From Escherichia phage UGJNEcP1, in the sequence record OV754623: 64,000 nucleotides of DNA. One strand, written 5' to 3'. The translations under genes and the position numbers were made by a program. Below, in pieces: positions 3,922-30,292 of this stretch. The notes under the pieces were generated by a model that was given only the letters and a program-made list of their open reading frames with translations, was not told the DNA's origin and searched no databases. Numbering within the stretch: position 1 is the first letter of the stretch; the number at the start of each line of letters is the position of its first letter.

Positions 3922-4470
3922 AAACTCTATCACTATTATTTTGACACTAAAGAATTTTACAAAGAAGAAAATTATAAACCATTAAAAGGCGTAGGATTTC
4001 CGGCTCATTCGACACCAAAAAAACCTTTAGACCCTAAAGAAGGCTATGCTGTTATATTTGACGAACGCGAGCAAGAATGGGTATATGTTGAAGACCATCG
4101 TGGAAAAACAGTATGGACTTATGATAAGCAAAAAATTGTTATTGACACTCCAGGTGCTCTTCAAAATGTTACTACAGAAGAACCTGGTGAATTTGACATT
4201 TGGACCGACGACGGGTGGAAGGAAGATGAAGCATATAAACGCGTAGTTCAACGTGATAAGAAAATTCATGAACTCTATAAATTATTCAGTGTTTTAAGTT
4301 CTCTTATTGACGCAGAGGTTGCTAATAGAGAAGAAAAACGAAAATTTAAAGAGCTCAAAAAATTCTTTGCCCTTTTAGAAAAACATGAACATCTTGGCGG
4401 CGAATTCCCTAAATTCCCTGACCTTGAAAAAAAATCTATTGTCAAAGCGATTATAAATATCTTTAAGTAA
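3919..4470 (+). CDS. 38: Tail fibre assembly chaperone gp38 (T4 type)
   Basis: 183 aa; N-terminus MKLYHYYFDTKEFYKEENYKP and C-terminus FFALLEKHEHLGGEFP match remembered T4 gp38. Confidence 0.85.
   Translation: MKLYHYYFDTKEFYKEENYKPLKGVGFPAHSTPKKPLDPKEGYAVIFDEREQEWVYVEDHRGKTVWTYDKQKIVIDTPGALQNVTTEEPGEFDIWTDDGWKEDEAYKRVVQRDKKIHELYKLFSVLSSLIDAEVANREEKRKFKELKKFFALLEKHEHLGGEFPKFPDLEKKSIVKAIINIFK
4452..4459 (+). promoter_or_regulatory. T4-type late promoter (TATAAATA) for holin t
   Basis: Exact TATAAATA about 20 nt upstream of the t start, followed by RBS aaggagg. Confidence 0.55.
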
Positions 4471-4479
4471 GGAGGTATT

Positions 4480-5142
4480 ATGGCAACACCAAAAGTGTCA
4501 TTTTCGCCTAGTGATATTCTATTTGGGTTGCTAGATCGTATTTTCAAAGATAACGCTACTGGAAAGGTTTTAATGTCCCGAGTAGCGGTAATTATTCTTT
4601 TGTTCCTAATGGCACTAATATGGTACAAAGGAAGTATTTTGCTGGATTATTATGTAAGAGCTAAGTATGATACTTATACTGAAATAATCCAAAAAGAACG
4701 AGCTTTACGTTTTGAATCTGCGGCTCTAGAACAACTGCAAATAGTTCATATCTCATCTGGTGCAGATTTTAGTGCTGTGTATTCTTTCAGACCTAAAAAC
4801 TTAAATTATTTTGTCGACCTTATAGCTTATGAAGGCAAACTACCTAGCACAATTTCTGAAAAGTCGCTTGGTGGATTCCCGGTGGATAAAACGGCTAATG
4901 AATATATAATTCATTTAAGTGGCCGTCATTTCTCATCTAAATCAGAATTTGCATTTTTGCCTACAAAATCTAAGACTGCCGAACTTTCTTATATGTATAG
5001 TTGTCCATACTTTAATTTGGATAACATCTATGCTGGAACTGTGGCGATGTATTGGTATAAGGGGAATAATAATATACTTGAGGAAGATCGCTTAGCGGCT
5101 ATATGCAACCAAGCGATCCGAATACTAGGAAGGGCTAAATAA
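4480..5142 (+). CDS. t: Holin T
   Basis: 220 aa; N-terminal SFSPSDILFG..DNATGKVL..SRVAV plus a single TM and large periplasmic domain match T4 holin. Confidence 0.9.
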   Translation: MATPKVSFSPSDILFGLLDRIFKDNATGKVLMSRVAVIILLFLMALIWYKGSILLDYYVRAKYDTYTEIIQKERALRFESAALEQLQIVHISSGADFSAVYSFRPKNLNYFVDLIAYEGKLPSTISEKSLGGFPVDKTANEYIIHLSGRHFSSKSEFAFLPTKSKTAELSYMYSCPYFNLDNIYAGTVAMYWYKGNNNILEEDRLAAICNQAIRILGRAK

Positions 5143-16850: not shown

Positions 16851-18666
16851 AGGACATCCATTCTTTACGAAGTTCTGAATCATCACCCATCAACATTTCA
16901 AAGAGTTCTTTCCAATTTTCAGGAAGTTTAACTACGTCGTACACAGGGTTCTGAATCATTTCACGATATTCTGACTTTTCAAGGGAGCCTAATCCCTTGA
17001 TGTATCTAATACTATGCTTAGGCAGTGTATCTTTAACTTCTTCATACTCAGCTACAGTATAAAACCATTTTTGAGTTTTGCCAATTTGTGCAATAATTAC
17101 AGGCGTTTTAACAAAACGAATACGTCCTTGTTCAAACAATTCAGGCCAATTACTAAAGAAAGCAAGCAAAGCCGGATAGATACTTCCAAGACCGTCGTGA
17201 TCTGCATCGGTCATAATTGCAATATTACGATAGTTCGTATTCTCTGCCTTTTCACCAAGAATAAGACCTGTGATAGCACAGATATCGAAGAGCTCTTTGT
17301 TCTTCATCATATCGGCATATGACATACCCCAGCTATTCATCACCTTACCACGTAATGGGAATCCACCGTGTAGTTCACGGTCACGAACATCAATGAGATA
17401 ACCAATTGCCGAATCACCTTCTGTTAAAAACAATGTTGTATCTGCATCTTTACCGCATTGGTTAGCTTTAATATGCTTATGAACCTTAGCTTTAGTTGCC
17501 TTTTTAGCTGCTTTAGTTTCTGCAGCCTTTTCTGCCGCCAATTTACGAGCTAATGCTGCTTCAACAATAGGCATAATCAAGGCTTCGTTTTTAAGAAGTG
17601 CCTGAGCAATTTTCTTAGCATCTAATTGGATATGATTACGAATATCACCGTACGTTGACGTTAAACGCTCTTTAGTCTGAGAATCAAAACGCATGTTGCT
17701 CATGTCTCTAATAAACATCAACATTGTGAGACATTCTTTAACACGAGCTTTAGTGACTTCAATACCCTTATATTTCTTTTTAATACCTGGCAAAAGATGT
17801 TCACAGATATCATCCATTACACATTCAACATGATGACCACCATTTTTAGTATGGATGTTATTCACATAAGTTAAATGACGGAAGCCATCTGGTGATGTTG
17901 TGAATGCTATAGAAACTTTATCATTTTCTTGAATGATGTTATCTTCACCAAATTGTTTAGCAAATCGTTTAAAATTACCATCAACCTTTTTACCATTAAA
18001 TGTGAACTTGATATCAGGATAAACGACTGCCAATGTTTGAAGTCGGTCTAAAGTAATATCTAAATAAATTTGAGATAAATTGTGCTCTTCAAACGAAGAG
18101 AAATCAGGAGTGAAGATTACTTTAGTGCCTTTACCTTTAGATTTCTTAGAAGACCATGATTTGTTTTCCATTCCATTTGAACAGTTAACAGTGATTTCAT
18201 TTTCGCCATCTGACGTAATGCCTGTAAACAACGTAGAGAAGATATTAGTTAAACTACTCCCGACGCCATTCATACCACCAGTCTTGCGTTCAGAGTCATC
18301 ACCAAAGTTACCACCGGCCTTTGGAATAGTCCAGGCTGCTACAGGCCCAGGAATTTGTTCACCTGTTTGGTCGGTAACTAAACCTTGAGGAATACCACGT
18401 CCGTTATCTTCCACCGAAACTTGATTATTTTTAATTTGCACATCAATTTTATTTGCAAACTTAAATGATGTACGAATAGCTTCATCAACCGAGTTGTCAA
18501 TAATCTCATCGATTAATTTAACCAGACCAGGAACATATTCAACTTGTTGATATTTACCAAACAAAAAACGCTCATGTGCTTCTTTAGCTGAAGAACCAAT
18601 ATACATACCACTGCGTTTCTTAATATGTTCTACATCCGACAATACCTTAATTTCATTTTTAATCAT
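16849..18666 (-). CDS. 39: DNA topoisomerase II large subunit gp39 (GyrB-like), unsplit
   Basis: 605 aa continuous ORF with N-terminal GHKL ATPase and TOPRIM region (LTEGDSA); not split as in T4. Confidence 0.9.
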   Translation of the reverse strand: MIKNEIKVLSDVEHIKKRSGMYIGSSAKEAHERFLFGKYQQVEYVPGLVKLIDEIIDNSVDEAIRTSFKFANKIDVQIKNNQVSVEDNGRGIPQGLVTDQTGEQIPGPVAAWTIPKAGGNFGDDSERKTGGMNGVGSSLTNIFSTLFTGITSDGENEITVNCSNGMENKSWSSKKSKGKGTKVIFTPDFSSFEEHNLSQIYLDITLDRLQTLAVVYPDIKFTFNGKKVDGNFKRFAKQFGEDNIIQENDKVSIAFTTSPDGFRHLTYVNNIHTKNGGHHVECVMDDICEHLLPGIKKKYKGIEVTKARVKECLTMLMFIRDMSNMRFDSQTKERLTSTYGDIRNHIQLDAKKIAQALLKNEALIMPIVEAALARKLAAEKAAETKAAKKATKAKVHKHIKANQCGKDADTTLFLTEGDSAIGYLIDVRDRELHGGFPLRGKVMNSWGMSYADMMKNKELFDICAITGLILGEKAENTNYRNIAIMTDADHDGLGSIYPALLAFFSNWPELFEQGRIRFVKTPVIIAQIGKTQKWFYTVAEYEEVKDTLPKHSIRYIKGLGSLEKSEYREMIQNPVYDVVKLPENWKELFEMLMGDDSELRKEWMS

Positions 18667-28465: not shown

Positions 28466-29002
28466 TCAGTAACCATTATCCTGACGTTCAAAGTTGTGTT
28501 GGTTTTTCAAGTAGTAAAGTTTAAAGATTTCTTCTGCAGTGAGTCCAAGACCCTGGAACATATTCAGAACAAAGTGGAGGATATCAATCATTTCAAATTT
28601 AATTTCAAGCTGGTCTTCAGGAGACAGTTCATCGATACGACGATTTCGATATTCAGCATGTTGTGCTTTCCAAGGCTTCCATACAGAGCTAGCGGCTTTT
28701 TCACCATTGCTCATACCACCGAGTGAAGTCAGCAGTTCACGGAATTCATCATCAATATAATCTTTCTGATTACGCAGCCAATCAACAACATCACCAGCAG
28801 TGGCCAATTCATCAGGATGTTTGTTATGTTCAGGCTTGTCATTTGCCAGACGAACCTGTAAAGATTTCTGCATATCAAGCATTACCTGCAGTGGGTCTTT
28901 ATCTTCGTGAATCAGAGCATTAAAATAAGCTTCTTCCGCTTTATCAACACCAGAAATAAGTTGTGAACATTCGTTAAAGTGTGCCATTATTTTTCCTTTC
29001 AA
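28466..29002 (-). CDS. 56: dCTP pyrophosphatase gp56 (MazG-like)
   Basis: 178 aa; all-alpha NTP-pyrophosphatase-like sequence at the T4 gene 56 position between soc and 61; start may be the internal MAHF. Confidence 0.7.
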   Translation of the reverse strand: MKGKIMAHFNECSQLISGVDKAEEAYFNALIHEDKDPLQVMLDMQKSLQVRLANDKPEHNKHPDELATAGDVVDWLRNQKDYIDDEFRELLTSLGGMSNGEKAASSVWKPWKAQHAEYRNRRIDELSPEDQLEIKFEMIDILHFVLNMFQGLGLTAEEIFKLYYLKNQHNFERQDNGY

Positions 29003-29075
29003 TTCAGTATAAGAGAGTTAATTTTAACATTAATTTTATAAAGCGTAATAAATAATAGGTAACTAAGGAGATATT

Positions 29076-29273
29076 ATGTTTAAACTTCCATCGTTAATCA
29101 ACGCTATTAAAGGCAATAAAAAGAAAACTGCTATCGCTGCAATAGTTGTAGGTGGCATTATTTCATGGAACTTCGGGATTGCACCATTGTTAGTTGCCCA
29201 TGGTATTATAGTTCCTTCTGTTCCATTGGATACTGTAGTTGATTTGGCCTTTGCTATTATAGGGCTTGTTTAA
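29076..29273 (+). CDS. Small hydrophobic membrane protein on the plus strand
   Basis: 65 aa; strong RBS taaggag 7 nt before the ATG; two hydrophobic segments; convergent with the gene 61 stop. Confidence 0.5.
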   Translation: MFKLPSLINAIKGNKKKTAIAAIVVGGIISWNFGIAPLLVAHGIIVPSVPLDTVVDLAFAIIGLV

Positions 29274-30292
29274 ATCTTCGAATAACGAGATAATCTCATT
29301 TTAGCATGCAACCCACTTGAAATATTCTGTTTCATATATTCTAAAATTTCTTGTGGTGTTGCATTTTCTTTCATTACCATATCATTCACATCCTTTGATC
29401 TCCACGGAGCTCGGTCCCAGAACATGACACGTTCGCCTGCATCAACTAATCGCTTCATGCGAGCTATAGTATCCGGATGCCTAGGTTCATTATCCATTAC
29501 CCATACCCGACGTTCTTTAAATGGTACCACATCTAAATCTATTGAGCCGCCTGTAATAGCGATTGCATTGGGTATGAATAAACTATCAATAGGGCCTTCC
29601 ATTACCCAGACGTCTCCTTCCTTAACACGTTCAACACCATAAATTTTTGTTGCAGACTCAAACGCTTTAATAGTGATATATTTCTGAGGAGCATCTTTAC
29701 GAAGTGCACGTCCTTGGAATGACTCGGCCTTACCATCTTTATTAAAAATAGGAATCACTAAACGTGGTTCGGGAATCTCTTTCTTGTACGTACCAGGTTG
29801 AATCTTGTTGACCAATTTAGGCCATTCTAATGTGAACCATAATCTGTTCCATGATTCTTTAGGAATACACCGAGACTTGACATATTTCACAATAGGATGC
29901 TCTTCAGGCAACTTGTCCAGACGAGAACAAGACGGCAAAGAATTTATAGTCTTTTTCTCCGGTTCTGGTTTATGTTCAGGAACCTTTTCAATTTTTGGTT
30001 CCATTCTAGCTTTTTCTTTACGAACTTCCATTAGATATTCGCGATAAAGCTCTTCATCATACTCTTTTAAGTATCCAGAAATTGTATTATGGTATTGACA
30101 GTTATAGCAATGTACATTACCAGGAGTACCGCCATAATACCATCCGCGAGCTTTCATTGCATCTGTCTGGGAGTCGCCACAAACTGGACAACGAAACGTT
30201 AATTTAAATGTGCTTGAATTATTGATTTGTCTAAAACGAGGGAGGTGAGAAAACGCACGATAAGCAAATTCATTATCTATCCATTCAGCCAT
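29270..30292 (-). CDS. 61: DNA primase gp61
   Basis: 340 aa; zinc finger CPVCGDS..HCYNC and long stretches (QGRALRKDAPQKYITI, FWD..PW.SKDVNDM) as in T4 gp61. Confidence 0.9.
   Translation of the reverse strand: MAEWIDNEFAYRAFSHLPRFRQINNSSTFKLTFRCPVCGDSQTDAMKARGWYYGGTPGNVHCYNCQYHNTISGYLKEYDEELYREYLMEVRKEKARMEPKIEKVPEHKPEPEKKTINSLPSCSRLDKLPEEHPIVKYVKSRCIPKESWNRLWFTLEWPKLVNKIQPGTYKKEIPEPRLVIPIFNKDGKAESFQGRALRKDAPQKYITIKAFESATKIYGVERVKEGDVWVMEGPIDSLFIPNAIAITGGSIDLDVVPFKERRVWVMDNEPRHPDTIARMKRLVDAGERVMFWDRAPWRSKDVNDMVMKENATPQEILEYMKQNISSGLHAKMRLSRYSKI

Follow-up and report, generated by a model that had tools for sequence, protein, structure and literature searches.

A small gene convergent with the primase gene of T-even phages probably encodes a late inner-membrane protein

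Within the 64,000 nucleotides of Escherichia phage UGJNEcP1 that we analyzed (from sequence record OV754623; we will call this whole stretch the window), a small gene lies on the plus strand between gene 56 and gene 61, which are both on the minus strand. Comparisons with related phages indicate that its frame of 65 codons is a genuine protein-coding gene, with MFKLPSLINAIKGNKKKTAIAAIVVGGIISWNFGIAPLLVAHGIIVPSVPLDTVVDLAFAIIGLV as the translated product, and identify it as the Mosigvirus ortholog of RB69ORF029w and of T4 dam.1. The family is already known and catalogued under these names and as phrog_2024, and it is uncharacterized. We think it likely that this is a bona fide T4-type gene that sits on the late strand of a block of early and middle genes and encodes a small inner-membrane protein that is made late in infection. 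The coordinates are in Table 1. A sequence-only reading of the window had described a plus-strand ORF of 65 amino acids between genes 56 and 61, with a strong ribosome binding site and with a 3' end that overlaps the stop codon of gene 61, and all of these features are present. The ATG begins 5 nt after a good Shine-Dalgarno sequence, and the stop codons of the two convergent genes share four bases.

Table 1. Positions of the small gene, its signals, its neighbors, and related sites in the window
Feature	Position	Strand	Description or basis
Small ORF, coding sequence	29076..29273	+	65 aa, stop codon included; ORF list and full-length match to phrog_2024
Shine-Dalgarno sequence, AAGGAG	29065..29070	+	Direct sequence reading; 5 nt to ATG
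Predicted gp55-dependent late promoter box, AATAAATA	29047..29054	+	A(-13) variant of TATAAATA; 29 nt before ATG
Possible MotA-type middle promoter for gene 56	29021..29045	-	CGCTTTA, 12 nt, TAAAAT; pattern match only
Predicted single transmembrane helix, codons 15-41	29118..29198	+	AlphaFold2 pLDDT ~90; holds the invariant W-N and P37
C-terminal codons 42-65	29199..29270	+	HG turn, Pro-rich loop with P47 and P50, short acidic amphipathic helix
TTAA, overlapping convergent stops	29270..29273	both	ORF TAA at 29271-29273; gene 61 stop at 29270-29272 (-)
Gene 56, dCTPase (NTP pyrophosphohydrolase)	28466..28987	-	phrog_173
Gene 61, primase	29270..30292	-	phrog_47
WATAAATA sites in the window	69, 589, 3096, 4452, 28452(-), 29047, 60758(-)		Motif scan

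The assignment to the family is straightforward. Residues 1-65 of the ORF align with positions 1-65 of the 65 positions of the phrog_2024 profile (E=1.9e-27), and the T4 copy matches the same profile with E=1.5e-31. A second match among the PHROGs, to phrog_23152, is weak (E=0.084), which leaves phrog_2024 as the only significant one; neither of these families has an assigned function. The protein differs from the RB69 copy at 1 of 65 residues (98.5% identity) and is 54% identical to the T4 copy. The 501 bases around the ORF are 100% identical in UGJNEcP2 and 99.8% identical in APCEc01, and both belong to the RB69 group of T4-like phages, the genus Mosigvirus. With the window protein as the query, tblastn found the family in 692 phage records, about 150 of them from Mosigvirus (identity of at least 95%) and about 530 from Tequatrovirus (about 54%). 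Queries with divergent members added Gaprivervirus, Dhakavirus, Mosugukvirus, Gelderlandvirus, Kanagawavirus, Jiaodavirus, and Marfavirus.

The context of the gene is as well conserved as the gene. In every locus that we fetched, it is on the plus strand and converges with the 3' end of gene 61, and the gene upstream of it, on the opposite strand, is gene 56 or dam. The window gene resembles RB69ORF029w, T4 dam.1, and the rest of phrog_2024 in position, in orientation, in its Shine-Dalgarno sequence, and in having a NATAAATA box upstream. One difference is that T4 has dam between dam.1 and gene 56, whereas gene 56 is the direct neighbor in the window. To study conservation, we used 13 phages that represent 9 genera of Tevenvirinae plus Marfavirus, with syntenic orthologs from Mosigvirus, Tequatrovirus, Gaprivervirus, Dhakavirus, Mosugukvirus, Gelderlandvirus, Kanagawavirus, Jiaodavirus, and Marfavirus.

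One alternative is that this short ORF, in an AT-rich window, arose by chance in a spacer that matters only for regulation, as the home of the gene 56 promoter and of the 3' end of gene 61's message. If the 284-nt spacer is shuffled, then a closed ORF that reaches 65 codons or more appears, in one frame or another, in 2% of the shuffles, so the length alone is only mildly unusual. Also, the ORF list has many antisense ORFs of 60-100 amino acids elsewhere in the window, and the reference annotation of T4 leaves the equivalent 309 bp empty. The comparative data tell against a chance ORF, however. The frame is open at all 13 loci. Across the 12 spacers that we examined, the only frame that is kept open throughout is that of the small ORF, at 61-75 codons, as opposed to anything from 0 to 54 codons in the other five frames. 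The conservation of one frame across genera makes the ORF far more than a chance occurrence. The sequence-only reading would have taken loss of the frame in relatives as evidence against a gene, and we see clearly the reverse.

The pattern of substitutions leads to the same conclusion. For pairs that include the window gene, dN/dS is 0.05 (with RB69), 0.11 (with T4), or 0.15 (with TH41); for other pairs whose dS is not saturated, it is 0.07-0.36, which gives an overall range of 0.05-0.36, far below 1. Differences are much rarer at the second position of codons (0-0.25) than at the third (0.36-0.75), with the first position in between but closer to the third (2 << 1 < 3). Together, the low dN/dS and the scarcity of changes at the second position imply purifying selection on the amino acid sequence. 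The indels among the orthologs are all in frame, including two independent deletions of 3 amino acids. In an alignment of 27 sequences, W31, N32, P37, and G43 are invariant, and K15, P47, V49, and G63 are nearly so. The Shine-Dalgarno sequence and the promoter box that we discuss below are conserved too.

The last argument comes from phages that lack the gene. The small convergent ORF is absent from the five straboviruses from outside the Tevenvirinae that we checked, namely RB49 (Krischvirus), Matisse (Slopekvirus), Yersinia phage JC221, Konradin (Lazarusvirus), and AS-gz (Tulanevirus). In these five, gene 61 is followed by a gene on the same strand, after a gap of 8-14 nt in four of them and of about 120 nt in AS-gz. 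This neighbor is gene 56 in RB49 (locus coordinates 4009-4024), Matisse (1923-1931), and JC221 (1923-1935). Because genes 61 and 56 abut at 8-14 nt in straboviruses without the ORF, no spacer is needed between them. We consider the idea of a chance ORF to be effectively refuted by these comparisons, and it is almost certainly wrong.

The absence of the gene from these five phages, and the close packing of their genes, suggest where it came from: by comparison of these loci, it looks like an acquisition by, or an insertion in, the T-even subfamily, with Marfavirus carrying it as well. (The taxonomy line places Marfavirus outside the Tevenvirinae, yet it has the gene.) The far side of the locus is variable in some genera. 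In Kanagawavirus and Marfavirus, the gene 56 region is annotated with either two coding sequences or one short one of 94-97 amino acids, and a homing endonuclease lies directly next to this region in Kosakonia phage 305. Gene 56 may be split or interrupted in these phages (locus positions 560-1360, 1-592, 391-672, and 1-594).

The family's annotation history is uneven. RB69ORF029w has been part of RB69's record from the publication of that genome onward, the T4 copy is named dam.1 (T4Tp032) in the T4T record and in UniRef, and most recent genomes annotate their member as a hypothetical protein. But in the T4 reference records (NC_000866.4 and AF158101.6), the gap between dam and gene 61, at 17626-17934 (309 bp), is left empty. 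This gap holds a 66-aa ortholog (CDS_0033 in OZ209057; positions 1492-1692 of the locus that we fetched). The records for JS98, JS10, T2, and PEi20 also omit the gene. These omissions have consequences. Since NC_000866 omits dam.1, studies that count its features cannot see the gene; for example, a time-resolved study of the T4 transcriptome and proteome counted only the features in NC_000866.4 (PMC9697503). Similarly, because the T4 record had no counterpart, RB69ORF029w could, we infer, only be classed as "novel" when T4-like genomes were compared in 2006. We searched the literature on the ORF029w/dam.1 family and found no paper that mentions the gene and no report of a transcript, a protein, or a phenotype.

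When might the gene be expressed? The late promoter of T4 is TATAAATA at -13 to -6, and of 50 late sites that have been listed for T4, 32 are perfect and 9 have an A at -13 (PMC2988020). In other T4-like phages, conservation of the T at -13 is poor (PMC1524935). The predicted box of the window gene, AATAAATA, has the A. Across the family, a NATAAATA box lies 20-29 nt upstream of the ATG at 12 of 13 orthologous loci, and the bases around the box have diverged. The full TATAAATA is found in Marfa, Q7622, and K305 and AATAAATA in the window, RB69, and KIT01; the remaining loci have G or C at the first position of the box, apart from CGG4-1, which is the exception and has only ATTAAATA. The T4 copy's box is GATAAATA. 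So most family members have A, G, or C rather than T at -13, and there is less documentation for G or C at this position than for A. All 13 loci have a Shine-Dalgarno sequence of the GGAGG or AGGAG type at the equivalent place.

The placement of the box is what would be expected for a T4-type late unit: transcription would start at about 29060, which is just upstream of the Shine-Dalgarno sequence and about 16 nt upstream of the ATG. Furthermore, sites of this kind are scarce. The window has 7 matches to WATAAATA as compared to 17.1 +/- 3.7 expected, and all of 100 shuffles had 7 or more, a depletion that suggests that late promoters in stray places are selected against. Of these 7 sites, five lie 28-39 nt before a Shine-Dalgarno sequence and ATG on the same strand, and these belong to holin t, soc, gene 49 (endonuclease VII), a long-tail-fibre gene, and the small ORF. 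Given the conservation of the box and this shared geometry, the small ORF's promoter is placed like those of recognized late genes.

Two of these genes are useful for comparison. Both soc and gene 49 are also short late units among early genes, with a box of the TATAAATA type at this same distance, and soc is in the same early block as the small ORF, just 650 nt away. The small ORF differs from them in that its box has A rather than T at -13 and in that it is on the opposite strand from its early neighbors and converges with gene 61, whereas they are on the same strand as theirs. This orientation had been described as unusual in the sequence-only reading, which overstates the case. Late transcripts of T4 can have either polarity, while early and middle transcripts are all on the other strand from this gene (PMC2988020), and with soc as another late gene in the block, we view a convergent late arrangement as normal for T4-type phages.

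A scan for sigma-70 promoters was uninformative, with 2 weak sites, both on the minus strand, as compared to 5.4 expected. Because early and middle transcription in T4 is on the other strand, a late promoter is the only known route by which a plus-strand gene could be expressed here. Combined with the evidence for the box, this leads us to conclude, as a well-supported reading of the sequences, that the small ORF would be expressed late from the AATAAATA box. The upstream spacer of 88 nt may contain a second signal. The consensus for T4 middle promoters is (a/t)(a/t)TGCTT(t/c)A, a spacer of 11-13 nt, and TAnnnT, and a possible MotA-type promoter for gene 56, on the minus strand, lies back to back with the late box.

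We turn to the protein. It is strongly hydrophobic (GRAVY of 1.24), with the Kyte-Doolittle maximum over residues 18-41. AlphaFold2, run with the alignment of 27 sequences, gives a model with a mean pLDDT of 84, with helices at residues 3-13, 15-41, and 51-62 and with a loop, HGIIVPSVP, at residues 42-50. We also scored the 13 family members for transmembrane segments with Hessa free-energy sums, which are crude. The best window of 19 residues is 18-36 in the window protein, is comparable (about 16-38) in 11 of the 12 others, and is 27-45 in Q7622. The best sums range from -2.4 to +3.6 kcal/mol across the 13 members; the window protein, at +2.4, and KIT01, at +3.6, are borderline. In contrast, the sums for the C-terminal segment are +5 to +11 kcal/mol in all 13 members, and because of these scores we prefer a single span.

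As for orientation, in all 13 members the charge of the N-terminal flank is +1 to +7 and that of the C-terminal flank is 0 to -2, which implies that the N terminus is inside and the C terminus is outside. The window protein has five lysines within residues 3-17, and its C-terminal end (...DLAFAIIGLV) is hydrophobic, with a net charge of -2 and no basic residues. In other words, the protein is predicted to have at least one hydrophobic helix that spans the membrane, along with a positive-inside bias, as an integral protein of the inner membrane should. From the model and these scores, it is probably a single-pass membrane protein, N-in and C-out, with a tail of about 24 residues that is periplasmic or interfacial. 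A hairpin with two spans is less likely, given the unfavorable scores of the C-terminal segment. The sequence-only reading had described "a hydrophobic two-segment protein", and "two-segment" overstates it: the protein is hydrophobic, but its one stretch with the score of a membrane span is residues ~18-40. It had also proposed that the gene might be a "late-expressed membrane factor", and this idea has fared well, as the promoter box at 12 of 13 loci and the predicted transmembrane helix make a late membrane protein the most likely reading.

The family seems to have two forms of the predicted transmembrane helix. There is a conserved Asp in the middle of the helix, in the column of window residue 27 (...LALDVFLWN...), in Dhakavirus, Marfavirus, Mosugukvirus, Gelderlandvirus, and part of Kanagawavirus, and this position is Gly in the subfamily of T4 and RB69. 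Like the borderline free-energy sums, the Asp tells to some extent against a membrane span. In the C-terminal helix, the members with the Asp also have E-H where the subfamily of T4 and RB69 has D-T. The pattern hints at a polar contact within the membrane or at oligomerization.

Searches for a function gave little. Scans of four family members against Pfam, NCBIfam, and PADLOC found nothing beyond an insignificant match to SspI, and a sequence-profile search of the PDB gave only noise (E >= 0.8). When the AlphaFold model was compared to BFVD with Foldseek, only family members were found. When 1.84 billion representatives were searched exhaustively with a HMMER profile, there were 5 matches, all of them to the family itself, and a scan of IMG/VR with the alignment gave 10 loci, all from close T-even relatives and in the same context. 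A few members do have functional labels. The ortholog from vB_EcoM_OE5505 is labelled "Holin" in UniRef, and elsewhere in the family there are the names "DNA packaging ATPase" and "dCTP pyrophosphatase" (the latter at positions 701-925 of the fetched locus). All of these are probably errors of annotation transfer or spill-over.

The holin label deserves some thought nonetheless. Class II holins and pinholins, such as S68 of phage 21, are hydrophobic proteins of about 65-70 amino acids that are made late, and the product of the small ORF is similar in size, is hydrophobic, and is predicted to be late. So it could be a lysis protein that oligomerizes in the inner membrane, late in infection, and depolarizes or permeabilizes it. 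The likeness goes no further, though. We found no match to a holin model from Pfam or NCBIfam (E <= 10) or from PHROGs; there is just one credible span; and the C terminus is hydrophobic or acidic instead of being a charged cytoplasmic tail. The gene is between genes 56 and 61, outside the lysis cassette and not adjacent to the endolysin, and it would not be the only holin of this phage, as the window has a T-type holin at 4480-5139 (phrog_860, E=1e-101). Finally, the name "Holin" comes without evidence, and its relatives are mislabelled too. We consider a holin or a pinholin to be very improbable.

A second comparison is with small late proteins of T4 that are anchored in the membrane near the N terminus and extend into the periplasm, such as the antiholin RI and the i-spanin PseT.3. 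Here the resemblance is in architecture only: the product is small, has an N-terminal helix, and has a C terminus that is predicted to be periplasmic. We detected no similarity of sequence or of fold to RI or PseT.3, the periplasmic part would be only about 24 residues, and the gene is not near the lysis genes.

The convergence with gene 61 raises another possibility, which is that the late plus-strand transcript matters as an antisense RNA, or via transcriptional collision, by shutting off primase and read-through between genes 61 and 56, and that the ORF is secondary. The two stop codons do overlap in the window. A terminator scan predicted none downstream of the ORF in the window, and RNAalifold found no consensus pairs in the 3' end of gene 61. 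(Individual genomes have hairpins of the CCCTG...CAGGG type in that region, and we dropped the idea of a conserved terminator hairpin there because of the RNAalifold result.) With no terminator and no conserved structure in gene 61, the late transcript of the window probably runs antisense into gene 61, judging by sequence. Also, both strands of T4 are transcribed at some sites, at different times (PMC2988020).

In other genera, the arrangement is different. We measured the spacing of the ORF and gene 61 at 12 loci: 7 have the 4-nt overlap, 2 have an overlap of 21-24 nt, and the other 3 have gaps of 2, 18, and 118 nt. The loci with gaps come from three genera, two of which have strong hairpins between the genes. 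In CJ20 (Gaprivervirus), the hairpin is at about 1751-1795 of the locus, with a 19-bp stem and a dG of -23 kcal/mol, and in Mineola (Jiaodavirus), it is GGGGC-TTTG-GCCCC, at 1666-1680. From their sequences, these are likely to be bidirectional terminators. The genera in which the ORF and gene 61 overlap have no hairpin between the genes. So neither the overlap nor read-through is conserved, and this stands against a role for the RNA, as do the purifying selection on the amino acid sequence and the strong Shine-Dalgarno sequence at every locus. Because the spacing varies, because hairpins separate the genes in some genera, and because selection acts on amino acids, antisense transcription is not the conserved reason for the gene. 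The sequence-only reading had raised an antisense regulator of primase expression, and for these reasons we do not see support for this as a conserved function; overall, the sequences indicate that selection is on the protein, not on an antisense RNA, and we think that an antisense explanation of the gene is quite unlikely. Antisense read-through could still occur as a side effect where the genes overlap.

If the small gene is indeed a late gene for an inner-membrane protein, then it might work as follows. After the onset of DNA replication, RNA polymerase with gp55 would start transcription at the AATAAATA box, and the AAGGAG of the short leader would drive translation of the 65-aa product. 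The basic N terminus would stay in the cytoplasm, residues ~15-41 would span the membrane, and the C terminus of about 24 residues would face the periplasm or the outer leaflet. The protein would then act in the envelope late in infection. Our best guess about its role, which is speculative, is that it is an accessory factor of the inner membrane or the envelope, specific to the T-even subfamily, that might take part in lysis inhibition or in the timing of lysis, or help to keep the membrane intact.

There is also a bolder version of this idea, which we find rather unlikely. Namely, dam.1/ORF029w would be an overlooked late factor of the inner membrane, present across the subfamily, with a real part in a classic phenotype such as the timing or inhibition of lysis or late envelope integrity and exclusion; where the genes overlap, its transcript might also damp primase. 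Under this reading, dam.1 would have escaped notice for decades owing to the empty 309-bp locus in the T4 reference.

As it stands, this is an ordinary gene that is annotated as hypothetical, with a modest lesson about annotation as a by-product. Adding dam.1 to the annotation of T4, together with a fresh look at strand-specific data that already exist, would be cheap, and it would show whether the T-even phages have another late membrane protein to explain.
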